Source: Jimgerdemannia flammicorona | Taxonomy: Eukaryota | Length of the DNA stretch: 41,723 nt | NCBI GenBank assembly: GCA_003990765.1 | Contig: RBNJ01000100.1 | Location: 1 to 41,723 of the forward strand | Direction: 5' to 3' | In this document: in pieces, positions 6,096-40,610 of the stretch | Layout: each line of letters opens with the position of its first letter | How positions within the stretch are numbered: position 1 is the first letter of the stretch | Position numbers and translations under genes: made by a program | Notes under the pieces: generated by a model | Database searches by the model: none | Seen by the model: the letters and a program-made list of their open reading frames with translations, nothing else | Told to the model about the DNA's origin: nothing

Positions 6096-6660
6096 CAGGT
6101 CTATAGGTAAAATGAATTGACAGTCAACATAAACTGTTCATACATTCTTAGCATTTATCAAGAATATAGAGCAATAGATAAATATAGATGAAAGTTGTAG
6201 AGAAGTTAACAATATTGATGGTATCTTTGTAAATATATTATTTGCTTTGAAATTTAATTATAATAAAAACACAGAATACTTTGATAGCTATTTCCTTTAA
6301 TTTTTTCTCCTGTGTGGTCAGATTACTTTCTTTACTCTAACTTCAGTCATAGTTCATTTTGTAAAATAAAGATTAGTTGATACTACAATGCTCTCTTAAG
6401 GAAGAGATGGTTCTTTCGAATTCTTGAACTCATCTAAAACTCATGAACTATATAGAATTATCCCTGTATAAAATATCAACATGAAACTAATTTACATCAA
6501 ATCCATGATGGAACCAAAAAACTATAGTACTATCAGAAGCATCTTAAAAAAAGTACAAGGCAAGAAAATTGCTCTATATATTTTCAAAATATCTGATATC
6601 AAAACTATTCAAGAATATTTGGATAAAGAGAAGATTACCTATAAAAGTTACTAACATTAG

Positions 6661-8156: not shown

Positions 8157-8332
8157 TTTTTTTTTTTTTTTTTTTATAGTCACTTGGACTCTTCCTTTAT
8201 TACACCCATCTATCCCATATAAGTACAGTGAACCCACTCTCTATCCAATCTCCCTAGGGGGGCCCCTCCCCCCTACCCCTTCTCGATGAAACACCACTCT
8301 ATCGAATACAATTCCCACCCTCCCACCACTCT

Positions 8333-9099: not shown

Positions 9100-9102
9100 A
9101 CT

Positions 9103-9117
9103 TGGTAGCAGCAGATT
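9103..9117 (+). promoter_or_regulatory. Primer-binding site, probably initiator tRNA-Met
   Basis: TGGTAGCAGCAGATT begins 3 nt after the LTR. TGGTAGC is the usual tRNAi-Met complement. Confidence 0.7.
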
Positions 9118-11039: not shown

Positions 11040-11455
11040 GTCATCAAAGTATAGAAGATATGGTATAAGGCTACCACCCCCACTAAGGCCCACCCAACTG
11101 ATGCTGGATATGATCTCTACAGTAGCCAAGACCTCACCATCCCACCAAGCACCAATGCTACAGTGCGAACAGGAATTGCAATGCAAGCTCCCAAAGGAAC
11201 ATACATCTGCCTTGCTGAGCAAAGTAGCCTAGCCAAAGAGTTCAATATTGGGCTAGGTGGAGGAGTAGTTGACTAAGGATTTACTGGTGAAATCCATGTC
11301 ATCTTGCAAAATTTTGAAGACACCTCATTTGAAGTCAAAACAGGCCAAAGGATTGCCCAAGCAATCATTGAAGAAATCTGTCAAGATCTCACCATTGAAG
11401 AAGTCCCTGAACTCTCCCAGACAGACCATGGCAAGAAAGGGTTTGGATCTACCAA
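11040..11455 (+). pseudogene. dut: Trimeric dUTPase domain between gag and protease of element A
   Basis: All five motifs: DAGYDL, EQSSLA (decayed RSGLA), GVVD*GFTGEI, RIAQ, HGKKGFGST. Confidence 0.93.
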
Positions 11456-14400: not shown

Positions 14401-14961
14401 TCAAACAGATGCTTAGCATCTTCTGCTGTTACAAGCAAAATGATGGGATAAGTACCTAGCCCATGCTGAGTTTGCCTACAACAACAGTCAGAAAACCTCC
14501 ACAAAGAAGACTCCATTCTTCCTGAACCATGGTCAACACCCAAGGACCCCTAGTACTACCACGAAATCAGCAGTCCCAGCAGCCCAAGATCTGACCGAGA
14601 CCATTTCTGACCTTATGCAAATGACAAGAGATGCTCTCATAGAAGCACAAGACTACCAGACCAAGTATGCGAATTTGAAGTAAAGAGAAGCCTCCTATAA
14701 TATTGGTGATATGGTCATGCTTAGAACAGACCACCTCCACCCAGACACCCTGATACAACAACCAGCCAAGAAACTCTGTGCTAGAAGAATTGGACCATAC
14801 AAGATCATGGAAAAAATCAGCAAAGTCAACTACAAGTTGAACTTCCCCACAATATCCGAGTACACCCAGTATTCCATATCAGCCAATTGGTGGACTACCA
14901 TAAGAACCCATTCCCTGAGCATACAGTTCCACCACCACCCCCAATTAGGATCAATGATCAT

Positions 14962-15125
14962 GAGGAATTCGAAATTGAGGAAGTACTTGACCACAAGGTC
15001 CATAAATATTCTAAAATAGTCAAGCACTTTTTCCTGATCAAGTGGAAGGGTTACCCCACCCATGATGCCATCTGGGAAAAAGAAGAAGCCCTGAAGAATA
15101 CATGTGAAGCCCTCCAGAACTACAT
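14962..15125 (+). other. Integrase C-terminal chromodomain
   Basis: EEFEIEEVLDHK..FFLIKWKGYPTHDAIWEKEEAL..CEALQNY. Confidence 0.92.
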
Positions 15126-15812
15126 GGAAACACTCACCCCCCAGCAAAGGAAGGAACTACAGCTCTAAGTATAGGTGCATACAGCAAGCAGAAGGATACC
15201 ACATATTTTTATCTGGAAACATATAATACCAAATATTGCGAAAAAAGGAACACTATAGATAACTAACAAAAAGATATCTGAACAAAAGAACAATCTAGTA
15301 CAGTTCAGCAAATTGCATTTGAACAACTCCATTTTATGCCATCTGTGTCATCTCCACTGGATGATGATGGATGCTTCATGTGAAACTTAGGAAAGCCAAC
15401 AATGTTGAAACCAGTCTAAGTCCATCCACGTGATAGATATTGTTACTAGGAATTGCCTCAGATTACAAGAAAAGTCTATTTCTGAGAGGTTTGAACCCCC
15501 AGCCGCGACAATGGGAGCCCTTGCCCTAGACAAGGATGGTCAGTCCTTGCAAATGCACCAACCAGATAAAAAAAAAGTGGACCAAGACCTGTTAACCCTG
15601 TGTAACCACAACTATAGGTGACGAGATCTTTGAAATCAGGATTTTCTCATGTGACCAGCACATGCTCTGCTTACAGTATAGGTCATACATTTTGCCAGAA
15701 AGCATAACCAAAGGAAGGTCACATCAGATGGGTGAATAAGTATAAATACCCAAGGCAAGAATACCCCACAACTCTCATCTCCCTTTCCTCACAAAGAAAA
15801 GACAAGACAAGA

Positions 15813-16643
15813 ATGCCTGCCACCTGCTGCCAAACTGCCTGCCGTAGCCAGCCCCTCTCAAGCCAGGTTGACTTCCTCTTTGGACACATCTAGGTTACCA
15901 TCCAAGGAAGGAACCGCCACTCAGAGGCCCTTAACCTCTCCAGCCAGGACCTAGAACACTATGTCCTCAACTACTGTGAAGTCATCAAAAGAGCCTACCT
16001 TACCACCAGCTGCCTAGAGATCTGGCATGAATACGAGATTGACCATCAACTCCTCCAATGGGCAAAGGACCTGCCCATGGACCAAGTCTCTGATTGGACC
16101 CACCTAGATAGGTACGAGCAAAGACTTGCCAAGAAGGTCCATCAAATCATATGCCATGTACCCTTTGTGATCTCCAACCTCAACTACATACAACTGAAGG
16201 ACTTTCAGAACCTCTCTTTCCCTGAGGTCGATGCCCTAGAAGTCAAGGTTGTCCAAGAAGCCAACTCCTGGATTGCCCTCAAGTCTACTGACTACAAACC
16301 CTACTGGAGCCCCCTCCTGAATAACAACCCTGACCAATGGCTCCAAGGTCTCTCTGACCTCTTTGAAGGACCACCTATCCGAATGGATATTCCCAGGCAT
16401 GAAGATTAAGAGCCCTACTTGGATGGCCTCAACTATATCAGATGGAGAATCCCTATATCAGCACCTATTCCAATGCAAGAACCATTTGCAGACCTTATTG
16501 ACTTCTCCATTCTGGACAACGAGCTATCTGCAACCACCACCCCCCTTGCCCCTGGAGAAGATGGTAATAACCCTGAGGAGGATTCCCCACCTTTCTCTCC
16601 CCTGGTTCTTAATTTCTCAATCAATGAGGATGTTGATTTCTAA
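15813..16643 (+). pseudogene. Element A accessory ORF3 (~276 aa, two premature stops), unknown function
   Basis: ATG at 15813 is in frame with track ORFs 16077 and 16419. Own TATAAATA at 15741. Stop overlaps the PPT. Confidence 0.8.
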
Positions 16644-16654
16644 GGGGGGAAGGA
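16642..16654 (+). promoter_or_regulatory. Polypurine tract of element A
   Basis: AAGGGGGGAAGGA directly before the 3' LTR. Confidence 0.9.
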
Positions 16655-17425
16655 TGTAATAGAACAAACAGATGGGACATGATGAGACAAACAATCATGT
16701 GACCTGGCAGTGACATCATCATACGATCAAGTGTGGCATATGAATAATGAACAAATAATGCAAAATGACATGGAAAATGATATCCAGCTTATCCCCAATA
16801 ATCAGCGCCACAGCAACAGTTGCCACAGCTGCTGATTATTGCCTAGTAATTGAGGTTCTGATCACAAAGATATTCTTTACCAAAAATTACCTGACAAAGG
16901 TCGCAATCATAAACCTCATTATAGTTACCAAATTAGTCACTCATACTTAGTCAGAAATCGTGGACCAACTTGTATAAATACCCCCCAGTTTCCATCTGAA
17001 ATAAAGCAGTTTTAGTTCAGCCCTTGATATAAGAATCAAGCCCCCCCCACACACATACATTCCCCTGAGTCTTAGTAATAATATCTAAGTGACTCTAGTG
17101 TTTCTGACTAAACTCCAGAAGCCTAGCTAACTTCTGCCAGAACTGAGACTGGTATATAAATCCCCAAAGACTTAAGTAAACCTATTGAATCTGAATTCCA
17201 AGGTGAATTTAGTCTGTGCACAGCAAAGAATAAGACTCTCGAAATAGGGCACAAGAGAAAGACCTTTGAAAGATAAGGCACTGCTGCTACATACAACTAC
17301 TTTAAGTGAGCACTTCCTCAAACTGAAGGCTTCTTGGTACACATTGTGTACTAAGTCCCTAAGTAATAGTCCACTTCCCTAATTATCCAAAGGATAAGAG
17401 AGGGGTAGAAGTGAGAGTTATTACA
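16655..17425 (+). repeat. Element A 3' LTR (771 bp)
   Basis: TGTAATAG...TATTACA. Differs from the 5' LTR by transitions and a 4-bp insertion. Confidence 0.95.
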
Positions 17426-20400
17426 ACTCTGTTCACATATCCTTGTTACCAAACCTTGCCATTGCCCCCCTGAAGGACTCCAACCTATCTACCATCCAGT
17501 CATCAGATCTCCCAACAGCTCCTCCTACCTTAAAACCTTCTCCTGCAGGCCTACCTACTGCTCCTCCTCAAACACAAATAGCCAATGTCCTGCCAATCTC
17601 ACTCAAACTGCTAATACCCACCCAACAGTGAGCCAACTATCACTCACCCCCCCCCACTAGCCAACATCTCAAGTCCTCCCAGCAATTCCCCTCACCCACT
17701 GGCCTATGCCCCACCTCCAGTCTATCTCCTATTTTAACCCAAAAGTTCCCAAAAACCTCACACTCTCCCAGCCAATGTTCTGGTGTCTGCACCAAACCCC
17801 CAACTTGCCCTATATTGTAACACTCCTCACAATCAAGGCAGCCACCATCCACCAGATACCTGGTGTGGAAATTCAGCATGACATTCCTCCACAGTATTCG
17901 CCACTACACTATCCAAAACTTGGGAGAAAGCTACTGCTGTACCTCAGCACTCCAAGACCAGATACCTGCCCAGTCCCACTCCTCACCGATTCCAACTGCC
18001 TGCCAACTGCTCAGTCAAAGATCCTGGCCAAGACCCTACTGATACTCCACTCCATCTCCTATATCAAAGTAGCAAGTGGAGTGCCTCCCAGTAACAGTCT
18101 ATCTCATCACCACATACTAGGTCCCCACAACACCTCTCCCTCATTATCTTGCCAGTGCAGACCAATTCTGTATGCTCTATCGACCACTCCCCACCAAAAG
18201 CCCTTAAACCTTAGCCTCTGAATTCCATTGAGCCCCACTAAAGAGAGTAGATCTTCCGAGGACCCTTGGGGGGAGGTTCTCATCTCCCACATCTTCTGCA
18301 GCAGAGGCACCCAACTCCCTCCTTGTAGTTCAGCTGCTCTCCTCAACCACCAGGCTTGCAAGCAGTGCAACCTTTTAGGAAAATCCACAAGGTCAAGACC
18401 TCTCCTGACCACTGGTGTTGCAAGAGTATCCCAACTAATCTGGGACCTCCTCCCTGCCCAAATCCAATCCCTAGCCACCTTTGTCAGCCTCTTTACCACC
18501 CAAGCTGGGAAGTCTAGGTGGTAGGCCACATACCATAGCTTGGAGTACCAGTATATATTCAGAATTGCTACCTGTCCTGCTAGAGAGATATGGTAGCCTC
18601 TCTAATCTCAAAGGGCCCCCTCCCAAGCAGCCACCCTGCTCTCCCATCACACTCATGGCAGGACAGAGCCATACATAGAGAGGAAGATGCCCAGATACTG
18701 TACTACCTCACCAGTAGGGATAATTGTTCCAATGACATCCCCACCTACTAGCCTATTCTCCAGCAGCATAGTCTCACACTTATGCCAGTTGAGCTTCGCT
18801 CCAGAGTAATCCTCATACCATTCCACCATCTTCTTAAGTGCCTTGACATCTGCCACAGACCCAAGGCCAACCACCATATCATCTGCAAATGCTCCCACCT
18901 TCCACACTATGCTATAGATAGAGAGTCCTTCTACCTTCTGGCAAATCCTATCCATCAATAGTTCCAATAAGAGGGCATAAAGAATAGGGGACAGGGGGTT
19001 CCTCTGAGGAATCCCTCTTTTCAAGGTAAACACCAGACCATGATGACCATTACACATCAGTGCTGCCTGACTGCCTTCTAGCAGATTCAACATAGAAGCC
19101 CAAAATCCTGGAGGAATATCAATACGATCCAACACCTTGTTCAGCCCAACCCACCAGACCCAGTCATAGGCCTTCTCCTGGTCCAAGAAGACTAACCTTC
19201 CATCCAGTCTACAAGCCCAGGCCCCTTCAATGATACCATGCACCCATGCAGTCCCATCTCTTATAAGTCTGCCTCCAACAAAGCCCCACTGCTCCTCCCC
19301 CAGCACCTGTTGGACAACCTTCTGCAGTCTTGCAACAACTACCTTAGTCACCATCTTCCTATCCATGTCCAACAGCATGATCGGCTACCAGTTCTTCCAG
19401 TCTTCTCTCCTCCCCTTGTCTTTATACAATAAAGCCACCAGCCCAAGGTCCTACTCTCTGACCCACTCACCACTCTGAAGAACATGATCACAGAGAGCAG
19501 TCATCTCACCCAAAATGCCAGGGACCTTAACCATCTTCTTCCAGAAGTCCTATGGTAGTTCATCCTCCCCTAGTGCTGTTCTAGTTATAGTTGCTGCAAG
19601 GACACTCTGGACCTCCTCACCTCACACCGGCAAGGCCAAGTCATTCAGTCCAGCTACTTGTAGTGGCCTCCATTCCCCTAATGTATCTTCAATAGCTGCC
19701 CTATCAGCACCCCCTTTTTCCTCACTCCACAAACCCTGCTATCTCTCTTTCAAAACCTCTAAGATTCATTGCATGCCATGTACCATGTCCCCATCAGTAT
19801 CTAGGACTCTATCTCACTGATGTCTCACCCTCCTAGCTTTGAGCAGATGAGACAAATATCTAGTAGGCCACTCATCCTCCTCAAGCCCCTGCCACCCTAG
19901 CCTAGCAGCCATATCTTGCATATGTACCTCCTCCTCTTCTCTCAACACCTGTTGCAGTTCCATTATCTCCAATCTAACCTGTGCTAACCTCTAATCCTCC
20001 ACCCTATCAGAAGTGAGCAAACCTACCCAATCCATATGTAATCTCCTCAGCCTATTGGAAGCACACCTTGTGCACTTCCTCCTCTGTCTCCCTGCTTCTC
20101 TCCCAGTCCCTCCCCAATAGACTCTCACAGCCTCTTTCAATCTCATCCAACGGACACCCACCAACAAACCCTCATATCTCCAGCAAGAGACTTTCACCTG
20201 AATGTCCTCTACCCATGAATCCCACAACCCCTTCTCAGCCAGCAGGGAGGAGTTAAGGCACCAATGTCCAGATCTATCTCCACTCCCCCCAAACTGCCCC
20301 TAACCCAATAGTCCCTAGTGATCAGACCATGGGCACTATTCCACCTCCAAAATCTTCTAGATATCAGACCCCCAGCATTCTGCCATCAGAATCCAGTCAA

Positions 20401-24329: not shown

Positions 24330-24781
24330 TATATAAAAATATATTACAATATTACAAATGATGACATCACTAAGCTGACATCATCAGATTTGTATCACCA
24401 GTAAGATTATATACTAGAAAATACAAGAATATTAGTAAGATTATAATGATTTTATACTAATTTCAGCTCTCTTCAGTTAGTAACATCATAGTAGTCACAC
24501 TAGTCTCTATACTAGTTTAGTATGTACTCACACTGACATCACTATAGATATCTCAGAAATAGACTAAGAATGCTATAAATAGTATGAGACTAAATTAGTC
24601 TTCAGCTATATTGATGTCATAAACTAAAATAGTCTATAATATCATAGAAATTAGAGTATATTAAAATTAGCTACTGATATCATCAGCTCCCTGATATCAG
24701 GAGCTAATAAATCTTTAAGACCAGTAACTTCATGGGCTAAGCTAGACCATGACAAGCTATGAAATCATAGTTACTATATAC

Positions 24782-26148
24782 TATAATGTACTGGCTCAAT
24801 GGAGGCAAATTACAAGGTTGGGGATTGATGTAATTTGGCTTGAGCCCCCAGTTACTTTGTCAAAAAGCAATAAAATGTTCTAAGGTTTCTGAGGTCCTTG
24901 GTATTTGGTGATATAATAGTCAATCTGGATATCTGTGAGCGGTTTCCTTATTGGGATAGTTCTTTGAGTGTAGCAGCGATTTGTGTGTGAATAGACTTCC
25001 TTCTTGGGTCAACTGGGAATGGTACAATTTTGTATAGCAAGGTAATTTCCAAAAGTATGTGATTTCTGGGTGACGGTCTTGATGTGGTGATCTTTGTGTA
25101 GTACAATGATCTCCTTGTATGTGATGGTCTGGCAATTTAGCAGTTCTCCTTATGCAGATTTGGCGGATAACTCAATTTGACTCATTGGGAACAATGAACA
25201 ACTCAGACAGCATGAATCGGGTTCCTCTGGGAATAATAACTCAGGTGGCACGGGTTCTCTGGGAATGCAGATAACTCAAAAATGGCAGATAATGCAGATT
25301 CTTCCTGAATCGGCAGACTTCTTGGAAATGGTGACTTCAACTGGGAATTAACTTAGATGGCACAGATTCTTCTAAATCAGTGGCTTCAACTGGGAATATG
25401 GCAGATAACTTGGAGATGGCAGATGATGCAGATTCTTTCTGAATCAGTGGGTTTCTGAGAAATAACTCAGATTCTTAGTAAGTTACATCAAAGACTGGCT
25501 TCATTTGCACGGGGTTACATCATAGACTGGCTCCACTGCGAAGTTGCATCAGAAAGACTGACTTGTGGTAAGAAAGGCGGGCTCTTCTGGGGATATGGTG
25601 GATAACTGGGAAATGGCAGTGAAGTTCTTCCTTGAACTTGGCAGCAAACTGGGATTCTTCAGGCTTATCTGGCAAGCAACCCAAAAATGAACTCATTCTT
25701 TGTATCAGAAAGTGGACCAGAGTGAAAAGGGGAAATAAGCTCACAATCTCCTAGTAGTGGCTGTAGAGTTTCTCTCGAAGTGTGGTAGGCAGACTTGTCT
25801 TTTGTTTCAATTTTGGACTTTTCAAACTGAGGTTTATTCACTCTTATCTCTGGGGTAATTTATACAAGTTGGTTGCTATCTGGTTACTATGTGGCTAACT
25901 ATAGATCTGCTACTTATGGTAGGTATACAGAGTCTGTACGGTGTACAGGACCTGTACAGTGTACAGAGTCTGTATGGTGTACAGAGTCTGTACAGGTAAA
26001 CAGACCCTTTCTGGTATCTCTGGCTATTTATACAGTTTTCCATAGCAATGGTTACTAGTTACTATGCTGTGTGTTCGCATTATCTTGCCTAATTGTTTAT
26101 ATCATCTAGTTAAGATATAATTCAGGTGATACATTTTGGTTTATTACA
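24782..26148 (-). repeat. Element B 3' LTR (1367 bp)
   Basis: Direct repeat of 33743-35144. Preceded on the - strand by the purine-rich AGTGGGGGCTGA (26149-26160, PPT). Confidence 0.93.
25923..25994. repeat. Four 18-bp palindromic tandem units in the B 3' LTR
   Basis: Consensus GTGTACAGAGTCTGTACA. Confidence 0.9.
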
Positions 26149-26187
26149 TCAGCCCCCACTGAAGAGTAGTCTGTCTCAGACTATTCT

Positions 26188-26703
26188 TCAGTTATCATCC
26201 CAATAAGCATAGGCTGCTTCTGCATCTATACCTGTTCCATCATCTTCATTATCTGTACTGGGGTTACTCCATTCTATGGGCTCTTCTTCTTCTTCAGAGA
26301 ATAGGATTTCAGCAGAGTTGATGATGCTCAAATAGGTAACAGAGTTCATTCCTTGAATATCATTCAGAGAGAATTGTGCCTATGTTAGGGCTGTGACATT
26401 TCGTTTATAAATGGTGTATAGTCTGTCTGCAGCAGTAGTGTCTCTTCTGGTCAGACCTGTGGTGTTCCTGATGTAGGTCTGTTCTGGGGCTGGGAGGTTC
26501 TGCAATTGTTCACTGATTGCATAATAGGCCTACAGTTGGTGGACTTGTAGTAGGCATCTGGCCAAGGTGAGATTTTCTTGATGAGCTTGGATCCTTTGAA
26601 GAGGGCTTCTATTGGCTTGGCCAAATTGGGGTAGTGGGACTGGTAGGGCTTGGAAGAAGCTGAGGACCAATGTCTAGAGGTGCTGATCAATTCTTTGGCT
26701 CAT
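26188..26703 (-). pseudogene. Element B accessory ORF3 (~171 aa, three TAG stops), unknown function
   Basis: Manual translation: MSQRIDQHL*TLVLSFFQALPVPLP...QVHQL*AYYAISEQL...AADRLYTIY...EEEEEPIEW...WDDN*. Lies between integrase and PPT. Absent from the ORF track. Confidence 0.78.
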
Positions 26704-29700
26704 GGTGTAGAGGGGAAATATAGTTTGAGGTGATTGATGTGTACTGGTGTTCTCAGGATTCGTCCATCTATGCTTCTTAAATAGATGCTGGTTCCTCTGA
26801 TATTGTATACAAGATAAGGTCCTTCCCATTTTGGTTCTAGTTTGGCAGCAAAGTTTGTCTCAATCATGCTTCTCCAAACTAGGACTTGATCTCCAATCTT
26901 GATCTCCTGATCCTTCTATTTTTGGTTATAGTACTTCTTTTGTCTTTCCTGGGCTTTGATAATCTGTCCTTGGGCTTGATTTCATAACTGTTCTGCCTTC
27001 TTAAGGAGGTCTTCAAGATTCTCATGGTCAGCAGTTCTGGTTCTCTTGGCAAACATCATTTCGAATGGCTTTTGTTTGGTGGATGTGGCAGGGGTATTCT
27101 GAATTTCCCATAGGATCTCAGGTAAGCAGAGATCCCAATTAGTATAATTGACTCAAGCAAGTCCTTTCTTGATGGTCTGATTTATTCTCTCTGTCATGCC
27201 ATTAGTCTGAGGGTGGTATGATGTGGTCCTTTTGAGGTGAATCTTGTGAATTTGGGCATAACTTGTGATTATGTTGTTGATGAATTCCATGCCTCGGTCA
27301 GAGATGAGTTCTTCTGGAGGTCTATATCTGAGTGTGAGTCCATTGAGGAGGCCTACAATAGTTAAGACATCTGCAATTTCCATTGGAAAAGCCTCGGACC
27401 ACTTAGTCAGATGTTCTATAAATACAAGGATATATTTATTTCTTCTTGATATAACTGGTAGAGGTCCAATTACATCTACTTCCCATCTTTGAAAGATGTG
27501 AGTGAGTGGGGGAATTAGTTGCAGAGGGGCTTGATAGTTCTTCTTTCCTTAGTACTTCTGGCAGATGTCACATTTCTGAATAATGTCCCAGACTTAAGTT
27601 CTAAGGTGGGGTCAATGTTGATATTGTTTTCGAATCTTGTCTTCTGTACTTGTCTGTCCTTGGTGGGCTTTTTGATATTCTTGTCAGATGAGATCTTCTT
27701 ATTCCTTGATGGTCTGAGGAGCTTCCTTTAGGGTGTGGTTCCTCAGGACACCCTTCTTCTGATTCATTGGGGCTGGCGGAAAAGTACATCAACATTGTTG
27801 TGGGCTTTCCCTGCTTTGTGAATGATGGTGATTTTGTAATCCTGAAGGATAAGGATCCAGCGGGCTAGGATTCTGACAGGTTCCTTGTGGTTAAATAGCC
27901 ATTTGAGGGCTGCATGGTCTGTGATCAGAGTGAACCTTTTTTCAATAAGGTAATGCTTGAACAGGGTAACTGCCCATATGACTGCAAGGCATTCCAGTTT
28001 AGTGCTACCATAGTTCATCTGCTGCTGGTTGGTAGCTCTGCTTGCATAAGCTATCACATAGTGCTGTTGATCAGGTCCTTCTTGGGACAGTACTGCCCTG
28101 AGGCTATCTTTAGAAGCATCTGTATACAAAATGAATGGCTTCTGTAGATTGGGGTGCACAAGGATTGGTGCTGTAGTCATGCGGTTCTTGAGTTCTCTAA
28201 AGGCTTTTTCCTGTGATTCTGTCCATTTGAATGGCACTCCTTTCTTGAGAAGGATTCGGATTGGGGCAGCGATTTGGGCAAAATCTTTGATAAACCTTCT
28301 GTAGTAGGATACTAGTATCAAGAATGATAGTGTTTCCTTTAGAGTCTTGGGTACCAGCCAATTGTTGATCTTCTTGGGTTTCTTTGGGTCTGCATGAGTT
28401 CCTTCTTTTAAAACCATGAATCCCAGGAATTTGAGTTTCTGTTTTCCAAAGTAGCATTTCTTTACATTTAGTCTCAAGTGATTCTTGCAGGTGAGCTTGA
28501 AGAATTCCTCTAGGTGGTGCAGGTGTTCTTCGAAATTTGCTGAATAGATGTTGGAATCATCCATGTATACAATCAGACAGTAGTGGATCAAGGGGGCATA
28601 GACTGAATTCATCATCCTCTGGAAGGTGGGGGGTGCATTGCAAAGTCCAAAGGGCATTCGGAGATATTCAAACAGTTTTCCTAGAGCAAGGAAGGCTGTC
28701 TTTTGAATGTCCTTGGGGTCCATGGGGATCTCATGGAATCCTGCGAAGAGGTCCATACTGCTGAAGTATCTGGCATCTTGTAACTGGTCCAAAAGGTCAT
28801 CGATTCTGGGCAAAGGATAAGCATCCTTTTTAGTGACTGAGTTGAGTTTTCTGTAATCCACACAAAGTCTCCATCCTTCTTTCTTTGGTACAATAAGTAT
28901 AGGGCTGGCCCAGGGGCTGGTAGAGGGTCAGATGACTCTATTGTCTAAGAGTTCTTGGATGTGCTCCTTTTCAAATGTTTTTAAGTGATGGGGTATTCTA
29001 TAGGGTTTCTGCCAGATGGGTATTACACTTCCTGTATTTATGCTGTGGTGATATAATGGATTGTATGGCAGGTTGCCATAATCAGTGGTGAAGATATCTT
29101 GATATTTGTTGAGAAGTTCTACTAGTTGTTGCTGTTGTTGAGATGTCAATTCTTCTCCAATGTTGGTGGAAGGCTTCACTGTCTCCTGGGTCACAGAGGG
29201 GCCTTTCCTTTCTTCTGGGACCTTTTGCCATTTCCCAGTAGGTTTAGTTCATAAACTTCCCTATGAGTTTGGTTGAGAAAAGGCACCAGATGTCCTATGA
29301 TGGTTCCTTTTGGCAAGATGATGGTCTCCCAACTTTGGTTGGTTCCTCAGGAGTGTACTGAATTCATCTTGTCAGGGAATGTGTGTCCCTCTATGTCCAG
29401 GTGTGGGATATCTTTCTTGGGCTCAAAGAAAAGGTTTCTGAGATCAGGTGGTGCAAAGATTTCGAATGTGGTTTGTTCTCCAGGCTCCAGGATGAGATTC
29501 TTGTGCAATCTGACTGGTTGCCGGTATACTTGCTGGGGAACATTCCTCTTGAGATGGTTGACTTGAAGGAGATGTACCTCTTTTCTGTCTGAACTTCCAA
29601 ATCCCTTGGCTTGTCTTGTTCCTTTGGTTAGTTCAGAGACTTCCTATAACTGTGGGGTCTTGACCTTCATGAAGACTGCTTGGGAAATCTTCTGTCCTCT

Positions 29701-32700
29701 AATGATTCGGTACCATTCTACACTGCTGTTGTATAGGATAACCTTGATTTTGCCTATATATCCAGGGTCAATGGTTCCTCCTTCTACAGTTACCCCTTGT
29801 CTGGCAAGTCCAGACCTTGAGGTCAGTTGAATATAAGCTCCTTGAGGTGGCTGCATGACTAATCTAGTTCTAACCATAAAGGTTTTTTCAGGCTTGATAG
29901 ATTTATCCTCCAGGCTGTGAAGATCATATCCTACATCCTCTGGATGGGCTTTGGTCAGGGATTTGGCCTTAGGGTACAGCAGGGTATACTGGGCAATGTC
30001 CTTGCTGAGTTCAGATTTTCCTAAGGCTGAAGCTCCACTAGCGGAAAGCCTCCAAGCTCTAAGGTTGAGGTGTGGCCATCTGGCTCCAGTAGAGGGGTCT
30101 CAGAGGTAATTGATTCCCCTCCTTCCTATAGGGTCAAGGGCTTCCATGAAGTTGGTGGCATCTTCTGCCCATCCTTGGTAGGTTGCATATCTGATGTGAG
30201 CTAGGATGTCTTCTCTCAAATCATAGATCTTGAGAATTCTTTTTCCAGACTTCTTGGTCTGGTTTTTTTGAATCTGACTTTTTCAGATCTGACTTCAGTT
30301 ATCTCCTTTCTTCAAGGTGTGCACTACAATATCATGACTGAGGTGAATCTTCTGATGTCTGCAGTCTCGGCAGTCAGGGTGTCTCCCATGGTTGCAGTAT
30401 CCCATTGCTCAGAAATGATATTCCCGGCTATTTATCTCTTATTGTCTTGGGAATCAGTACCCATCTTGATCATAGGTTGGGGGAAGAGTAGACAAGGGGT
30501 ATATTTCTGTTCGGGTAAAGAAGCCTTGTCCTCTAAATTGACTTTGTAATCTTGTGGTGACTTCTTGAAAGGTGGTAGACTGTGCAAGAGTAGTTGGGGG
30601 TTCTGGTCTCTGGGGTCTCTGTCTTTCTTGTTGGTCCAACAGATGACACTGATAGCAGTAGTCTTGGGGAGAGTGGAAGACCATTTGATGTAGACATCTT
30701 CTTAGCCAGAAAGCTTTCTCTTAGTGGGTTTCTTTCTTAGAGATAATGGTGATAGTACTGGGTCCTTCCTCTGTATTCCAGGGGTCATTATCTTCAGGTG
30801 GTATCCAGCGAGGGTCATCTCAGGGGATGAGTTCGGGGACTTCTTCTTCATCAGGTGCTTCTTGTTCAGGAACTTCTTGGTCGGAAGTTTCTTCTTCCTC
30901 AGATGATTCTTGACCCCAAATTGCTTGTACTTCTGCAGCCTCGGTTACAGATGTTTCTGGGACATGTCTGCATTTCTTCTTCTTTCTTCTGTACTCTGGG
31001 CAGGCTGTGCCAGGTGATTTCCTTGTTCCCATGATCTTGGAGGAGTACTCAGGACACTTGTATCTCTTGAGGCATGTAGGGCATCCTTTGGCTTCTCCTA
31101 CAATGGCTCCAATAGTAATAGGGATAGTGTTTTTGGCCCACACATTATCTTCTGGTCTGTCATCCACCAGATTGATTTGGAGATTGAGTCTGGGATCATT
31201 TCCATCTTCAGATTCTTCCTCTTCTTCTGTGGTGGATTCTTCACTGCTAGCATATTCTTCCTGAATAGTGACCTTCTTTTTCTTCTTTGATTGCTATAAC
31301 TGGTCACCTTAACTCTGTACTTCTTACCTCAGTAGTCAAACTTGAGTACTTGTTGGTCGATATCAACAACTGCATTCATTTCCTTCATCCAGTTGGTGCC
31401 AAGAATCAAGTCATAGGTGACAGCTTCAGTGATAATAGCTTTGGGGATAGAGAACTGAATGTGTCCAAGGGAGATGGTGATGTTTCATACTTCTCCAAGG
31501 GGTTGAGTTCAGGTTCCATCTGCTACTATGATGCTGAGGTTGGATGGTCCATCAATGGGCCATTGGAGGGTGTCCAAGAATCATTTGGCAATAACATAGA
31601 CAGCTACTCCTGTATCTATGAGGATTTTTGATTTTTGTCCTCCAATGTCTCTATGTAAGTAGGTGCTGACATGTCTTTCAGCTGCTTGGATAGGGATAGA
31701 GGCTGGTTCTTGCTGTGGGATTGGAACTTGGCCAGTGCTAGACCTGGTGGTTCTCAGCAATTTGTTTCAGACCCCAGCTGGTATCAGTTGCAAGAACTGC
31801 AGGAGAGGAACTTCCATCTTGGCTTCTTGAATCTTCTGCCAGGCTTCATTGTAAATATCTCTAGACATGGTCTTTGGAGTGTACTTTTTCTTAGGCTTTG
31901 GAGCAGTAGGTTCCCATTCTTCTTGTTCCATTTCTTCATCTTCTGGTGGCAACTCGTTTGTCTTGGGGACAAAAGGTGAGGGGGTTCGGGGAGGTGTTTC
32001 TACTTGTTCTTTCTCATGTTCTTCATTCTCTTCTTGAATAATTCTTCTGCTGATATTCCTGGATGGTCTTCCTACAGGTCTCTTTCTTTTCTCTGCTGGA
32101 TAGACTGTCTTCCAGGTTGTAACCTTGGTAGGGTACAAGTCTAGGTCACTGTAGTCTTCACTGTTGCTTGCTTCCTCGAAATCTTCAACAGGATGGGCTT
32201 CAGTCTTCTTATACTGGGTGTCATTCCTTCAGTTTGGTGATTCTGAGTCCCTTTGGTCACTTCTTTTGTTGTCACATTCAGTGGCATAGTGTCCAAATTG
32301 TCCACAGTGGAAGCATTAGACTTGGGCTCTGTCTTGGATAGGGTACCTTCTTTCTTCTTGCTGGTAATTCTTGTTATCTCTTAGTGGATAACCTTGGCTC
32401 CTCTGTGGTGGATATCCTCTGTTGTCTTGGTAGCTCCGATTTTCATATATAGTGAGTTTTTCAATCTGGCCAACCAATTGGTCTAACTTGGAGCTGAGGT
32501 CTTGGATTTCACTTCTGTCCTTCTTTCCTTCCTTGGCTGACCTTCTTTCTTCAGATCTTTCTTGTTCTTAAAGGAGTCCTTGTAGGGCTTTAACCAGGAT
32601 ATCTTCCTTATCTTCCTTCTTGTCATGATCACTCCAGGTAGTTCCTTGCCTGACATTAAAGAATCCTTGGGCTGCATCTACTTGCTCTTCAGACCTTCTG

Positions 32701-33710
32701 ATGCCTAAGGTGTGGACATGCTGGGCAATATTCAGGGGAATTTCATTCATGAAGGTCATTGGGCCTATGATGTCCTGGTTGGTGGCATTGAACCCGGCAG
32801 AATGCATTCTCTTCTGGATTCTTGTGAAGAAGGCTCTGGGTGATTCTCCAAGATTCATCTTCATCTCCATGATGGATTTCTGAGCCTTGTGGTGGGTTTC
32901 ATTTCCTGCATACTTTTCAATGAGCCAGTGGACCATGGCCTCATATTCTAGCTCATCAGACATTGCTGCTTATATCTGTCTTGCTAGTTCTGAATCTCGG
33001 TTGTTTGCTATTTGATAGAAAATTCCTCTGGCTGGTTCTCTGAGCTAGGCTTTGTAGATGGCAATTTTTCTTTCATCCGAGAGGTTTCTCAAGGCTGCAA
33101 TTCCTTCAATTCCATCAAGGAATTCTCTGGGGTTCTCCTCTGGGTACCCTGCAAAGGTTAGCAATGAGGTGGCTATTTTGTTATCACTTTCTTCTGATTC
33201 TGGTTCAGGTTCGGATTCTGATTCTGATTCACTTTCTGAACTGTCACTAGAGATGGGGGTGCTTGGGTATCTTGAAGATGGTGTTCTGGTCCTTGGGTAA
33301 GATGGAATAGGCCTAGGTATTCTTGTAGGAGCTACCTCTGATTCAGCAAGGGGTTGTGGTAGGGGTTCTATTGGTGAAATTGGTGGAACTGGTGTGGGGT
33401 GTCTGGCTGTAAAGTGTTGGGTCCAGGTAATAAAGTCTTCTAGTTCTTGTGCAAGTTCTCCAAAAACTCTAACAGGGCTGCCTGTATTGTCTGGTTGATC
33501 TGGTTGATCTGGTTGGGGATTTCAGGCTGTACTACCTCTTGCTTCTGGTTGGGATCCTTCTGATGCTGGGTAGTTGGCAAGTCTTGAAGTGATTACTTCT
33601 CTTCCTGTCCAAATGCTAGTGATGACTGGTTCTCCTATAGTGGCAGAGGTTGGTGTTGTATCAAATATATCCAGTTTGACTGTGGGTTCTTGTGAGCTAA
33701 AAAGTCACAT
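26700..33710 (-). pseudogene. Element B gag-pol (degenerate)
   Basis: Gag knuckle CFHCGQFGHYATEC (~32275-32316). Protease LIDTG (~31615). RT DYRKLN, MPFGLCNAP and YMDD. RNase H TDAS. Integrase ISDRG, YHPQTNG and WEGPY. Confidence 0.93.
29588..29995 (-). pseudogene. dut: Trimeric dUTPase domain between protease and RT of element B
   Basis: Motifs DVGYDL, SRSGLA, GTIDPGYIGKI, KISQ, RQAKGFGSS. Confidence 0.93.
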
Positions 33711-33722
33711 TGATTTAAAATC

Positions 33723-33740
33723 TTCCCAGTTGAGCCCCCA
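33723..33740 (-). promoter_or_regulatory. Primer-binding site, tRNA-Pro type
   Basis: TGGGGGCTCAACTGGGAA begins 2 nt after the 5' LTR. Resembles the tRNA-Pro PBS TGGGGGCTCGTCCGGGAT once CpG decay is allowed for. Confidence 0.8.
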
Positions 33741-33742
33741 AA

Positions 33743-35144
33743 TGTAACATGCTGGCTCAATGGAGGCAAATTATAAGGTTGGGGGTTGATGTAGTTTGGC
33801 TTGAGCCCTCAGTTACTTTATTAAAAAGCAACAAAATGTTTTAAGGTACCTGAGGTCCTTGGTGTTTGGTGGTATAATAGTCAATCTAGATATCTGCGAG
33901 CAGTTTCCTTATTGGGATGGTTCTCTGAGTATAGTGGTAATTTGTATGTGAATGGACTTCCTTCTTGGGTCAACTGGGAATGGTACAATTTTGTGTAGCA
34001 AGGTAATTTCCAAAAGTATGTGATTTCTGGGTGACAGTCTTGATGTGGCAATCTTTGTGTAGTGTGATGATCTCCTTATACATGATGGTCTGGCAATTTA
34101 GCAGTTCTCCTTATATGGATTTGGTAGATAACTCAATTTGGCTCACTGGGAACAATGAACAACTTGGATGGCATGAATCAGGCTCCTCTGGGAACAATAA
34201 CTTGGGTGGTGCAGGTTCTCTGAGAATGCAGATAACTTGAAAACAGTAGATGATGCAGATTCTTCCTGAATCAGTAGACTTCTTGGAAACAGCGACTTCA
34301 ACTGGGAATTAACTTGGATGGTGCAGATTCTTCTAAATCGGCAGCTTCAACTGGGAATATAGCAGATAACTTGGAGATAGCAGATGATGTGGATTCTTCC
34401 TGAATCAGTGGGTTTCTGGGAAATAACTTGGATTCTTAGCAAGTTATGTCAAAGACTGGCTTCATTTATATGGGATTACATCATAGACTGGCTCCACTGC
34501 GAAGTTGCATCAGAAAGACTGGCTTGTGGCAAGAAAGGTGGGCTCTTCTGGAGATATGGCAGATAACTGGAAAATGGCAGTGAAGTTCTTTCTTGAACTT
34601 GGCAGCAAACTGGGATTCTTCAGGCTTATCTGGCAAGTGAACCAAAAACAAACTCATTCTTTGTATTGGAAAGTGGACTGGAGTGGAAAGGGGAAATAAG
34701 CTCACAATCTCCTAGCAGTGGCTGTAGAGTTCCTCTCAAAGTGTGGTAGGCAGACTTGCCTTTTGCTTCAATTTCGGACTTTTCGGACTGAGGTTTATTC
34801 ACTCTTATCTTGGGGTAATTTATACAAATTGGTTGCTATCTGGTTACTATGTGGCTAACTATAGATCTGCTACTTATGGCAGGTGTACAGAGTCTGTATG
34901 GTGTACAGGACCTGTACAGTGTACAGAGTCTGTATGGTGTACAGAGTCTGTACAGTGTACAGAGTCTGTATGGTGTACAGAGTCTGTACAGGTAAACAGA
35001 CCCTTTCTGGTATCTCTGGCTATTTATACAGTTTTCCACAGCAATGGTTGCTGGTTATTATGCTATGTATTCACATCATCTTGCCTAATTGTTCATGTCA
35101 TCTGGTTAAGATATAATTCAGGTGATATGTTTTGGTTTGTCACA
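33743..35144 (-). repeat. Element B 5' LTR (1402 bp)
   Basis: TGTGACAA...GTTACA on the - strand. TATAAATA at 35021-35028. Confidence 0.93.
34883..34990. repeat. Six 18-bp palindromic tandem units in the B 5' LTR
   Basis: Same unit as 25923-25994, with two extra copies. Confidence 0.9.
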
Positions 35145-35276
35145 ATACTAAAATAGTTTATTTGGTAAACAAATAAATACTTTACAAATTGGCTCTGAAA
35201 AATAATTATCTAAATAATTACCATACAAATACACAGATACCTCTCCCTCAAAACAAAACTAAGATATAAATAAATT

Positions 35277-35975
35277 ATGTCCATACCTTCTGAATATGTC
35301 TATGAAGTCCTTTGAGAAGTAGTTTTTGATCACCAACACTAGTATAATTGAGAATATATTAATCTTGATACTTATGATATAAAGTAGTTTTTACAAGCTA
35401 TTGATGAAATTGCTACAAGAATACAATTAATCATAAGACACTTTCAAACTACCAAGCTAATAGACTCCTAGTAAACAGTGGCTTGACCCTATCAGAGGTT
35501 ATAGATGAATACAATATCTCTATTTTCAGACAGCATATTTTAGTTTATACCTACTAATTACTCTGAGGAATACCCTATACTATTAGTAGTATAAGAGGAG
35601 TAACTCCAGCCAAAATTGAAAGTCTTAGTGATCAATTAACAAGTCAAATTGAGCTAGACCTTATAAATGACTTTAATCTACAAAAGTATCATAATGATAA
35701 TGTATAGCTATATAAGAATAAAGTCTTCAATAGACTCATTAGTCTATTTCAAGTATATACTTACTTCTCAGATTCAGATATATATGAATGTCTGGCTATA
35801 GAGAATTCCTATACTATTCAATGTAAGGCTAGCCTCACCAATATCTATATCATCATCTATGATTACTAGATCAGAACTAGACTCTGATGAGTCTAGTACT
35901 ATATCATCTGGGTCTAAGACTCTGAAAGAAGTCTTATCTCCTTTCAAAGAAGTCTGTTACTATCTCATAATGTAA
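35277..35975 (+). pseudogene. ORF inside solo LTR D, homologous to the element A ORF3 (stops plus two frameshifts)
   Basis: MSIPSEYVY..EYINLDTYDIK / NYQANRLL..LSEVIDEY..RQHILVYTY*LL*GIPYTISSIRGVTPAKIESLSD. Confidence 0.6.
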
Positions 35976-36635
35976 TACATTATATCACAAAGTCTTAGTT
36001 GAAAATCTAGAACATTACTTCATAAATAGTACATAAAAATGATATCATTAAATAGCATTATTATAACTTCATGATAATACTATTATAATGTAACTTTTAT
36101 ATCATTCTTAAGTGACTTTTTGTCTTATATCTTTTAGCCAATAGTCAGTCAATATATAAAGTCTTTAAAATGTATAAATACCCCTAAGTAAGCAACTCAA
36201 TAAAGGACAGAATATTTACAGAACATTTAATCTAAAAAGGAAAACAATTAAGACTTAAAAAGTCTATAATATATAGATAAGTCCCTAAATAATTTAAACT
36301 AAAAAAGACTACATCTAAAAATATATATCCTGAACTTTATAAATACTTGAACTCTAAAGAATCTAAATATAATTCTCAGAACCTGACTATATCTAAAAAA
36401 GATATACTAAAAGACTTAGACTTTAAAGAATTAAAGTCTGTAATTGCTAAATTGTTATCTAAGTCTATCAGAAGGAGACTAGATCAATTAGAAGTACAAT
36501 AGACAGTACTTAGGTATTAAAACAGCTACTTCCTCAAGCTACAGATATCTGACATAAGTGTCTTTAAGTTATTGATATTAAGAATCATTAATTTAAAGAA
36601 TGTAATTACCATAACAGTAAAGATATACTATTACA

Positions 36636-37371
36636 AAGATAGTTATTGACAAAGATATAGCTACTATAGTGAAGAATTTTTTGCTAAATTATGCCAAAGT
36701 TTATGGCTTATCTAGTCCAGTAAGAAATGTTAATCAGATTACTCAATCAATTATCTTTTTACCTATAGAAATAAGCTATAAATCTGTTTACCAAGACTTC
36801 CTAGCCAACCTGGAAGATAATAGTACTCTGAATGTACTCAGATATGATGCCTTTTACAAATTATAATACTAGCTAACTCTATATATCCAAATCATAAGCT
36901 TCCAAACTGATTTATGTGACACTTGTTAATACTTATAGAATAACTTACAATTCAAAGACTATAAAGAAGAAGAGGTCTAGGATTTATTAAAAAGATATAA
37001 AGAATATCTAGCCAAAGCCAAATTAAAATGAAATTATTATAATAAAAATACCAAATTGGCTGAAAAATAAAAAAAAATTCATCAATTAACCCTCACTAGC
37101 AAATAATAATATTCAATATTATAGCATTAATATAGTTATCCATTATAGCTATGACTGAGCTCAAAATGTTCACATTTCTCATTTAGATCAACAGATTGAC
37201 AAAGTATATTATCTTAGTACTTGCAAAGTATACTTGTTTGATATCTAAGATAAAGTGATCTATGAGTAAATTAATTATATCCATAATGAGAATAAACTTC
37301 TTAAAAAGGACCCAAACAGTATACTTAATCTGGTCTTTAATAGAATTAAGCAATTAAATAGAGGTGAAAAA
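36636..37371 (+). pseudogene. Sola-type transposase, segment 3
   Basis: FLLNYAKVYGLSSP..FLP...SYKSVY..FYKL..TDLCDTC..HYSYD*AQ..INY..NE..KKDPNS. Confidence 0.78.
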
Positions 37372-39382
37372 TATAAGTGCACAACCTCTAAGCCACTGAA
37401 ATCACATGTGACCTTTGAACAAATCTGGAAATTATCTGCATAATCATGAAGCTGAGTCAACATGAAGTCACAGAACATAAGATTTATATAAACAGAATCT
37501 TACCAATCAGGACCAAATATATATATATCAAGCACTAAGATATATTGAAACAGAGAACTAAAACAAATAACAACCATAACTTCTGAACATATACAAACAT
37601 GACTACTGAGATCTACAACTATATCTATGCTGATATTTAGAATACTATTGTCAATTGAGCTACACTCCCTCTGCCCCTCATGAATATCCATAGTCTAGCA
37701 CTCCTTTACTTCATGGAAGTCCAATGAAATGCTCTGAATATGCTTAGCAAGGTCTACCAAATCAGACAGATCTCAAGCTATTATCAGATCAGCCACCTCC
37801 TAGAAGATATAGTCAAACACCACTATAATATAGACATTATCCAGATGTCTCAATACTAGAAACTCATTGCCTGCAAATACTGAGAACTCTTTTATGAGTA
37901 TAGCACTGTTATTCCCCATCTCTGAGTTACTACCAGTGAAATGGTTACTACTCTATCCTATGGTCAAATCAATAATATGATATAAGAACTTAACCACAAG
38001 TACCTCGAATATGTTCAGACCATAGACAGAACCTTCTCATACCCCAATGACTATATTCTGCAAATGCCTCAAGTCAGATATGTAATGAAGGATGTCTATA
38101 ATATAATCTAATTTGATAAAGATAAAGCAGAAGACAATGATTTCTCTGACATCAACATAACTATAAGCCAAGGATCCCTGCCAACCCTGATCACTCTGCC
38201 AATCTTGCCAATAAACTTACAATAGTTCATAACCACCTACAAGACTTATTAGGACAATGATCACTAGTATGAATATCAATCCACATTCACCTCCAATTAC
38301 TTCAACTACAATGAAGAGATAGAAGAACACAATCTGTACCTTCAGATAACCCTCAAGATTGAACCAACCACTTCACTGCCCAAGTATGAGTGATATAAAC
38401 CACAGCTGCCAGCTTACTACAACTCCATGACTCATAGTGCTATAACCTATAGAAGATACACAGATAGCAAATCCAATGAAAGTGAAGATGATGTACTCCT
38501 CCTTTACCCACCAACTCCATATCTAGTATATGAGACAGACAATGCTATTCTGTAGGATGGTGATGAAGTCTCAATGTATTATTACCTCAGTGAATAAGGA
38601 GAATTAATTCACAAATAACTCTTTCTAGATAACTACTTTATCAGAGATAATGCTATCAATAGTGATGTCATTGAAGACTATCTAGATAGCATCTAAATCT
38701 ATAAATAGTTTAGCAGTCATAGTATAGTTAGATTAGCCTTATATGACATAACTATGAACTAACTCAGCAGTCAGATAATCTCTTGATATGTCAGATCACA
38801 CTTGTACTATATGACTACATTCCAACTCAGCAAGATACTTAGTGCTACATTCACATCTAGCATAGTCCAGATAACCTCTCACTAGTATAAATATCTCCTC
38901 CCCCACACCTCAGAATCTCAGACTGGAACAAACTCAAATACATAAGAACATTTCTGAATACTTCTCCACAATATCTCTTTATACAACTACTCCTAGTATA
39001 GTAATATCATGAATAGTGAATAAACCTATTTAATAACTCACAAACCACTCTTAAGTCAATCTACTCTCCATTAGGTCCCACTCCTAACCTTGTCACGAAA
39101 TTTCCTAATTGGGTATTGTCTGCAGCAATACACCAATTCAACTAAGCTGGTCTTAGTTTCTTGAATCTCCTGAAATATGGAAAATCCTAAACATCCAGAA
39201 CTAGTCCAAAAAAGGACTTTGGTTAAGACATCAACCTGATCTTGAAATCAATAAGCGTAGAGGACATACTCCATATGAAATTGATCTTGACTATAAGAAA
39301 ACAGTCTTTTAGAATATCTAGAACTTTCAGAAAACTCTTCCAAAACTAAGTAATGATTACTCTAATAAGTAACCCTCTTACA
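37372..39382 (+). mobile_element. Solo LTR C2 (2011 bp), uninterrupted
   Basis: T(A)TAAG...CTTACA. TSD AAAAA (37367-37371 / 39383-39387). Inverted homolog of C1. TATA boxes near 37485 and 38886. Confidence 0.85.
37599..38597 (+). pseudogene. LTR-encoded ORF (~332 aa, many transition stops), unknown function
   Basis: ATG to TAA spans 999 nt. Several stops are sense codons in the C1 copy, for example ADIWNT. Confidence 0.78.
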
Positions 39383-39890
39383 AAAAATGTTTAAAGATTA
39401 CTTATGACAATGCAGATAGACAGAACAAAAATAACACCACTCTTTAGTTTTATCTATACTTAGTAATTTGTGAGTACTTTGAAAGTATTGAATTGAACTT
39501 TATAGTTCCTAGCTATACTAAATTCAAGTATGATAGTAGTTTCAGATTAATTAAAAGACTTTATTGCAAAACAATAGTAGATTATATAGATCATATCATT
39601 GATATAGTAAAAATATCTAATATCACTAGACTAAATAAAGCTTGACATTATAATGGTGATGATAGTTTTCTATATTATAATATCATAAGCAGCCTAGAAA
39701 CTTATTTTAGAAAATTACTTGGCCTGTAAAAGTTTTAATATTTTCTTTTTACCAGAGCAAATCTAGGTACTATCAAAGCCCAAGAAGTTGCAAATAGTCT
39801 TTTCTGGAAATTCAAGTTATTGAATCCTAGCAAATCCACCACTTCTCAAGCTATAGAAAAAAATAAAATCTTTGTTATTTCTATTTGTTA
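39383..39890 (+). pseudogene. Sola-type transposase, segment 4 (catalytic core and C-terminus)
   Basis: RGEK|CLKITYDNADRQNKNN (DNxxGQNKN) and FIVPSYTKFKYDSSFRLIK (GHTKFxxDxxFGxIK). In frame across the C2 insertion. Confidence 0.8.
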
Positions 39891-40044
39891 GAGATCAATT
39901 TAAAGATATTATCTATCTAAGACTAATCTGAATAAAATATTAAAAGAAAATTAATTTTAATAAGTCTTTTATAGATTTGCTAAAATAATTTTATATATCT
40001 TTATAAAAAAAATATATATCAAAAAAATAAAAATAAGAAAAATT

Positions 40045-40610
40045 TATAATAAATATTTTAGAAGTATAATAATATACAAACAAAGAATTACTAAATGAAA
40101 TCAAATCACTGAAAAAGTAATTGTCAGATAAATAATAAGAAACCAATGAAATCATAAGGGAAAATTAAGAATTAAAAAGCAAATACCAATCACTGAATAA
40201 GAGAAAGCTGAATTCAAGCAAAAAGCTAGTGAATAAGTTAACTAAATAATAGTAGAGGCAGTTAAAAGAGCTTCTCATTTCAATATCACTGAAGATATAG
40301 AGAAAGATTTAAGAGAATGAATTAGCAAACTATTAAGAGTTCAATTTATGACTGCTATTTATAAACAATATATTGTAAATACTTACAAATTATAATATAT
40401 AGATGAAGAAAGAGAAAATAAAAAAAGACTAGAAAAAATTATCAAGAAAATTATTATAGATTATTAGAGATCAATTGAATATTATAGAGAAGTAGTAATG
40501 AAAGACTGAAAACTACATAAAGATGAGACTGAAATTATGCCACAAATAAAATCAGGAGATCAACTTTAAGGTAAACCTGCTAAAGACATCATCCTTAAGA
40601 ATATTATTGA
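40045..40610 (+). pseudogene. Degenerate K/E-rich, probably coiled-coil ORF of unknown function, truncated by the GC-rich element
   Basis: A protein-like frame (ELLNEIKSLKK..FNITEDIEKDLRE..SIEYYREVVMKD) punctuated by stops. Confidence 0.35.

Follow-up and report, generated by a model that had tools for sequence, protein, structure and literature searches.

The window is filled by nested mobile elements

We analysed a window of 41,723 nucleotides from Jimgerdemannia flammicorona (contig RBNJ01000100.1). Self-comparison and translation showed that it is filled by a nest of mobile elements, as follows.

1–5900: a LINE (self-comparison and translation)
7282–8157, minus strand: 3′ part of C1, a solo LTR of family C (84% identity to 38495–39380)
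8335–17428: LTR element A, inside a second LINE, which splits C1
23149–24304, minus strand: 5′ part of C1 (78% identity to 37372–38508)
24330–24783, plus strand: 5′ part of a solo D LTR, before the B insertion (boundaries approximate)
about 24784–35144, minus strand: LTR element B, which splits the D LTR (self-comparison and translation)
35145–36635, plus strand: 3′ part of the D LTR, with a decayed U3 gene from 35277 and a TATA at 36172
37367–37371, plus strand: left target-site duplication of C2, AAAAA, of low complexity (right copy 39383–39387)
37372–39382, plus strand: C2, a decayed solo LTR of Ty3/Gypsy family C, with 5′ end TATAAG and 3′ end CTTACA
37599–38696, plus strand: U3 accessory gene of 365 codons, dead in C2, with a predicted helical N-terminal domain of about 140 aa and an acidic tail

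C1 is a second solo LTR of family C, on the minus strand, and its halves are parted by the LINE that holds element A; its target duplication reads GGATA/GGATG, with 4 of 5 bases alike. AT-rich, strongly decayed frames at 36636–37371 and 39383–40580, and also at 5930–7281, carry cysteine and DNxxxQNKN-type motifs, which we take to resemble those of a DNA transposase; C2 is inserted in one of these. From 40580 to the contig end at 41723, the DNA is GC-rich and strongly skewed, with a LINE-like composition. Another genomic copy (L097, G000:C374) repeats window positions 35736–37279, the end of D and the same flank included; this may reflect duplication of the block, or transposition of a host element into which D had inserted.

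The LTR at 37372–39382 is a solo copy ruined by deamination

An LTR of about 2 kb with a CA terminus had been predicted at this position, and C2 indeed spans 2011 bp, ends in CA and is flanked by AAAAA on both sides. It is a single LTR without a PBS or PPT, as expected for a solo LTR. Its AAAAA/AAAAA flanks are of low complexity but are backed by perfect 5-bp duplications at 5 other solo C copies. The predicted TG terminus belongs to the family rather than to this copy: the 5′ end is TGTAAG in 45 of 58 aligned copies (a set that includes a few partial ones), whereas C2 reads TATAAG. C2 is what remained when the paired LTRs of an autonomous chromoviral Ty3/Gypsy element recombined.

A total of 330 differences, of which 294 are transitions and 36 are transversions, leave C2 with 82% identity to another copy (L025). 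C>T or G>A accounts for 248 of them, and CpG, CpA and CpC are affected more than CpT. CpG is depleted in the genome of the eukaryotic host. Comparison with the paired copies described below shows that the solo LTR was later ruined by cytosine deamination. The original prediction had assigned to C2 an ORF of 332 codons. A long U3 reading frame does exist there, but it is not open: aligned against 57 other copies, it spans 365 codons (37599–38696) and contains 15 internal stops and no frameshift. C2 as a whole has no open frame, its longest stop-free run on the plus strand being 53 codons. Judging from these stops, the U3 gene in C2 is dead and the window copy itself is inactive.

Family C consists of autonomous elements with paired LTRs

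A DNA search for C returned 6112 first-look candidates, of which 40 were scored (79–94% identity); the first-look figure, about 5,900–6,100, does not equal a copy number. C LTRs, whose family length is 2.07 kb, occur as pairs 8.4–8.6 kb apart on 3 contigs. In all 3 pairs checked, the first LTR is followed by a PBS, the second is preceded by a PPT and the 5-bp flanks are identical, the target duplications being CCATG (C1687), ACTAG (C3130) and CAGCC (C923). The paired copies around gag-pol, to which the original prediction had looked for confirmation, thus exist. The PBS, ACTTGGTAGCAGCGG, which presumably matches initiator tRNA-Met, is present in 16 distinct copies, and the PPT, AGAAGGGGAGAGT, in 13. 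Solo LTRs with perfect duplications number 6 (C2 and 5 others), and the remaining examined copies are cut or unclassified, so that among those examined element-attached LTRs (16 with PBS, 13 with PPT) outnumber solo ones.

Between the paired LTRs lie gag, dUTPase, protease, RT, RNase H, integrase, SH3 and chromodomain. In one element copy (L023), Pfam matches gave the order PR-RT-RH-IN with a C-terminal chromodomain. By its coding content, C is an autonomous Ty3/Gypsy family with a chromodomain and a dUTPase.

The two LTRs of a pair differ by 138–197 transitions but only 4–5 transversions in about 2070 bp, an excess which indicates that decay is mostly deamination. In the pairs L015/L004, L017/L008 and L023/L010, there are about 30 transitions per transversion. 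The C>T changes fall in CpG, CpA and CpC while CpT is spared, a context broader than that of CpG methylation alone.

Several C LTRs (L024 on C7399, L025 on C12375, L026 on C7803, and L011) adjoin other C LTRs in tandem or head-to-head, or are nested with them, and the family may prefer inserting into its own kind. In C elements, the gag core is also separated from the PBS by about 290 additional codons (L021:2233–3168), in frame with gag and without a Pfam match, and decayed counterparts of these are present in A (window 9102–9990) and D.

The U3 gene of family C is under purifying selection

With an open copy as query, the U3 frame was free of stops in 51 of the 112 best-scoring genomic matches by hand count; these matches were picked by protein similarity and are hence biased to good copies. 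It was open in 20 of 54 aligned copies, including 2 of the 25 that had been obtained through DNA matching or by fetching rather than through protein similarity. Open gene copies include P0001 and P0002. An ORF closed in young copies, which would have spoken against the original prediction, was thus not what we found for C. Of the 6 solo C LTRs, 2 (L048 and L053) have an open frame; the idea that the gene survives solo-LTR formation accordingly holds for these, but not for C1, C2 and D in the window, in all of which it is dead.

We examined selection in the 25 copies not chosen by protein similarity. In the ORF frame, pN/pS was 0.19 for transversions and 0.11 for T>C/A>G changes, as compared with 0.7–0.9 for C>T/G>A changes. 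As controls, shifted sense frames gave 1.3–3.2 and the LTR after the ORF 0.66–0.97; the antisense frame that shares third positions gave 0.43 and 0.17, the expected shadow. Indels point the same way, with 1 distinct indel in 1098 coding bp (54 copies) versus 30 in 674 non-coding LTR bp (38 copies). The low pN/pS outside deamination, together with values of about 0.7–0.9 for deamination, indicates selection that acted during replication and ended after insertion. These comparisons of aligned copies show that the U3 gene is real at the family level and has been under purifying selection in replicating lineages.

Conserved signals of the C LTR

The signals of the LTR are located in C2 as follows.

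37453–37459, plus strand: TGAGTCA site
37485–37492, plus strand: the first TATA of the original prediction, a product of C>T decay and not a family feature
37519–37530, plus strand: TATA-like box about 78 bp ahead of the ATG, a candidate promoter for the U3 gene
38886–38893, plus strand: main LTR TATA box, TATAAATA
39019–39024, plus strand: AATAAA, candidate polyadenylation signal in R

The family has two TGAGTCA sites, one retained by 52 and the other by 51 of 58 copies; C2 lacks one of them, and we take the site at 37453–37459 to be AP-1/Gcn4-like. Two predicted features did not extend to the family. At the position of the 37485 TATA, 32 of 58 copies have TACACAAA and only 3 have TATATAAA, and the E-box-like motif, CACATGTG, occurs in 7 of 58; both arose by C>T decay. 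The second predicted TATA, near 38886, is by contrast retained in 46 of 49 covering copies, and GTATAAATA is common to the LTR TATA of A, B, D and C. The AATAAA is present in 44 of the 44 covering copies among the 58.

The upstream box at 37519–37530 retains (C/T)ATATAT in 53 of 58 copies, in the form CATATAT, which is not a canonical TATA, in 36 of them. The U3 gene is probably transcribed from this TATA-like box of its own, and its transcript would end at the LTR poly(A) signal. A further TATAAAT directly follows the U3 stop codon (38700–38706) in 37 of 58 copies, with CATAAAT in 13.

We compared assembled contigs of three runs, two of them presumed RNA, with one element (L023:100–8690). Parts of the ORF and the region past the second TATA were matched at 85–90% identity by these contigs, while in the two presumed-RNA runs gag-pol was covered little or not at all. 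As contigs carry neither transcription start, strand nor level, the matches speak neither for nor against expression.

Elements A, D and probably B carry related genes

Elements A and B each have a third gene before the PPT, as had been predicted.

15813–16643, plus strand: third gene of A, 276 codons with 2 internal stops, homologous to the U3 gene
26188–26703, minus strand: third gene of B, 171 codons with 3 internal stops, before the PPT, a probable distant homolog

The A gene has a TATA of its own (TATAAAT) at 15740, 72 bp upstream, and its stop abuts the PPT. The B LTR of 1.4 kb (33745–35144 and 24784–26148, minus strand) has its TATA just 116 bp from its start. After it comes a long stretch full of short repeats, whose reading frame is degenerate and repetitive; this middle part of the LTR differs strongly among copies.

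The original prediction gave no coordinates for D, which we matched to an LTR of about 1.95 kb interrupted by B. A genome search with 35145–37371 showed that the repeat ends sharply at 36635 and has its other part at 24330–24783; 4 of 5 bases of the target duplication are alike. The proposed order of an ORF followed by a TATA is seen as a decayed U3 frame from 35277 and a TATA at 36172, but the frame (about 234 codons) is never open, with stops in every long match among 150 scored. A common purine tract precedes D in 7 copies, and a PBS-like sequence follows it in at least 4. Contig C3438 has, in order, a D 5′ LTR, gag-pol, a PPT and the opening 168 bp of a 3′ LTR, which supports the arrangement of D as a paired LTR, although the 3′ LTR there is incomplete. 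Within the clade of C, D forms a second LTR family, of greater age.

The pol–PPT spacers of C and D contain no relic of the gene. The C LTR after the stop codon measures 686 bp, near the 768 bp of the whole A LTR, but the two have no DNA likeness past 18 bp at the TATA.

The pre-PPT and U3 genes encode one protein family

Pairwise protein scores between families were weak (C–A, E 0.28; C–B, E 4e-5). We therefore searched each family with HMMs of the three others, using cleaned sets of 12 C, 9 A, 12 B and 7 D rows. C was recovered with P 1e-7 to 3e-6 (0 of 1200 shuffles reached the median), A with 1e-9 to 1e-7 (0 of 900) and D with 8e-9 to 2e-4 (0 of 700), each scoring higher than all or almost all shuffled sequences; B was marginal, at 1% of shuffles. 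Among family pairs compared with hhalign, only A–D was clear (E 6.5e-4), the B profile there having a chimeric first row, and for the C–A profile pair 1 of 40 shuffles reached the score. The homologous part comprises about 140 N-terminal residues with the motif Y-x-I-G-x-x-L. By these profile comparisons, the C and D proteins are clearly homologous, over their N-terminal ~140 residues, to the pre-PPT gene of A, and the B gene probably belongs to the same family. The proposed identity of the pre-PPT gene of A and B with the LTR gene of C and D is thereby borne out for C, A and D, and marginally for B.

Outside this genome, we found 12 metagenomic relatives (P0003, P0004 and P0006–P0015), which are unnamed or ‘hypothetical’; an outside homolog of 65% identity is open over 247 aa. 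No longer homolog was present among 6465 candidates, and no DNA context of the gene was confirmed in 25 and 92 metagenomic pattern matches. Pfam searches with 3, 12 and 17 proteins gave no match for the accessory gene above the curated cut-off, the best PHROGs hits had only E 0.05–0.09, and a PDB sequence search gave no match. A whole-library phmmer search returned 3 matches, one of them repeat-rich and by chance. The best Atlas scores, 0.85 for C and, for B, 0.93 (unnamed) and 0.92 (RegA-like, with only 136 shared features), are leads only.

The model of the full C protein is unusable (pLDDT 33.5). That of a B-type domain (pLDDT 56.6; 66–73 over residues 51–100) is all-helical, with a predicted long helix followed by two helices linked via a short turn; fold searches with it gave a best Z of 5.2 and Foldseek E above 0.7. 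ParB/SopB helix-turn-helix proteins were among the faint rows (Z 4.2–4.4) and were rejected as not significant. The members checked have no transmembrane stretch (best 19-residue hydropathy 0.86; 0.66–1.18 in six members). C-terminal tails of the C, A and B types contain 18–49% D+E and 8–15% W/F/Y, whereas the D tail, though decayed, is only 12% acidic. K+R make up 6–10% of the N-domain, which has no arginine-rich stretch. The sag protein family was rejected, as there was no Pfam match above threshold and no hydrophobic membrane anchor.

Origin and possible function of the U3 gene

We consider it likely that C has the architecture described here and that its U3 gene serves a selected accessory role. 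A captured or chance frame without a role, or non-autonomous TG..CA elements in place of true LTRs, would fit the solo and dead state of C1, C2 and D in the window and the lack of a database family. This reading is nevertheless very improbable in view of the paired autonomous copies, the open homologs outside the genome, and the strong purifying selection and indel avoidance seen with working controls; for C, the pairs with gag-pol and the selection and indel tests rule it out.

The accessory family of this gene has members between pol and the PPT in A and probably in B. In LTR elements, the PPT sets the left edge of the LTR (PMC7264820). If the priming of plus-strand synthesis shifted to a purine tract that precedes the gene together with its promoter, both would therefore be carried into U3, and such a PPT shift is, from the layout of the elements, the most likely route of entry. 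The C LTR reaches 2.07 kb because its U3 holds a whole protein gene; each insertion consequently brings two gene copies, and solo LTRs retain the gene. When rooted on B, the pol tree, built from 14 rows, placed A and D together (91/92), but a C+D grouping was not rejected (AU p 0.14, 5000 replicates). We favour, short of proof, two captures into U3, or one capture and a return; the tree does not fix the direction of the gene's move, which tempers the PPT-shift account.

Since no family, structure or fold match was found, our reading of the protein's function is based on composition and analogy. Tentatively, and with somewhat less than even confidence, we propose a soluble, Tas-like nuclear regulator of the element's expression, whose helical N-domain would bind nucleic acid or a partner and whose acidic aromatic tail would serve as an activation domain. 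The low K+R content of the N-domain (6–10%) is atypical of a DNA-binding domain, the D tail is poor in acidic residues (12%, though decayed), and the non-canonical upstream box in most copies (CATATAT in 36 of 58) weakens the case for a promoter of its own. The same architecture could instead serve a post-transcriptional RNA export or packaging factor, Rev- or CERV-like, made from a spliced message, with the upstream box no promoter. The small, conserved, soluble domain, helical in the model, would suit such a factor, CERV of the Cer1 retrotransposon offers a precedent (PMC10309623), and third genes of rotifer elements have been described as typically derived from spliced messages (PMC5408684). 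We regard it as unlikely, given the TATA or TATA-like box 72–78 bp before the ATG in A and C and the lack of an arginine-rich stretch; acidic aromatic tails would also suit activators more.

An anti-silencing factor directed against host cytosine methylation or deamination of repeats is similarly doubtful, and overlaps the activator model. The host attack is heavy (138–197 transitions versus 4–5 transversions, with C>T in CpG, CpA and CpC), the gene is common to distant Gypsy lineages of one genome, and retrotransposons with chromatin-modifying cargo have been described (10.64898/2026.05.21.726589). Pfam searches gave no enzyme or chromatin-reader domain, however, and the families that bear the gene are still heavily decayed. 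The post-pol position would also be that of env-like sense ORFs (PMC7264820), yet an env-like fusion or membrane protein is highly implausible for proteins without a hydrophobic stretch (0.66–1.18 in six members), with an acidic tail and, in B, of short length. We can picture a wider role, although we doubt that it applies in full: the undescribed protein family would move between distant Ty3/Gypsy lineages within one host group and would have entered U3 more than once by PPT relocation, the pol tree preferring A+D to C+D. Solo LTRs would be complete promoter–gene–poly(A) units, and the many open copies would act in trans as a scattered reservoir of activator or anti-silencing protein, with control over the total retrotransposon load.

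Comparison with known systems

Retrotransposon LTRs are taken as non-coding, whereas a selected gene of 365 codons here lies wholly in the U3 of a high-copy family. The sister elements, with a homolog just outside the LTR, provide a natural series for an LTR boundary swallowing a gene, and the new protein family is a candidate retrotransposon regulator. For annotation, solo LTRs with open frames can be called orphan genes, and relatives are already entered as unnamed or ‘hypothetical’ proteins. Our literature search, which had most subscription literature outside its scope, returned no report of a whole gene inside a retrotransposon LTR. The nef gene of HIV is an accessory gene that reaches U3, as in C, but it only overlaps U3 and is made by splicing, while the start codon, stop codon and candidate promoter of the C gene are all within the LTR.

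ORF0 of rice Retrosat2 is described as located upstream of gag-pol rather than as an LTR gene (PMC3485330), and the LTR start codons of Candida Tca5 concern gag (PMC4139406). Fungal chromoviruses such as PosPlaTy3 carry a dUTPase (PMC2864245), and C resembles them in its order dUTPase-PR-RT-RH-IN-SH3-chromo but has a 2.07-kb LTR with a coding U3; a figure legend of that paper notes a further ORF without known function. Extra sense genes located after pol and ahead of the 3′ LTR are described in plants (PMC7264820) and as rotifer ORF3s (PMC5408684). They likewise form a conserved post-pol gene in unrelated lineages and in dUTPase-bearing elements, a layout that A and B share. As far as these sources describe them, however, they are internal to the element and frequently encode env-like proteins or enzymes, whereas the C and D gene is past the PPT in the LTR and its protein matches no such type.

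Foamy virus Tas, with its N-terminal binding domain, C-terminal acidic activation domain and internal promoter (PMC7390438), resembles the C protein as a 3′-end accessory gene with a second promoter, a candidate one here. The analogy would be functional only: the Tas promoter described lies in env, not U3, and we found no sequence or fold link, with no match to Tas in Pfam, PDB sequence or fold searches (the last using the model of pLDDT 57). The closest layout is that of MMTV sag, which lies mostly in U3, with 490 of 527 sag contigs solo-LTR-like and an omega of 0.289 (PMC4667437). Like sag, the C gene is a U3 gene that is copied with both LTRs, kept in solo LTRs and under purifying selection; unlike it, C is an env-less Ty3/Gypsy retrotransposon with the whole gene in U3, encoding a soluble protein without a Pfam match. 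A mouse retrovirus thus offers a precedent for this layout, which is unusual among retrotransposons, and the protein family is undescribed.
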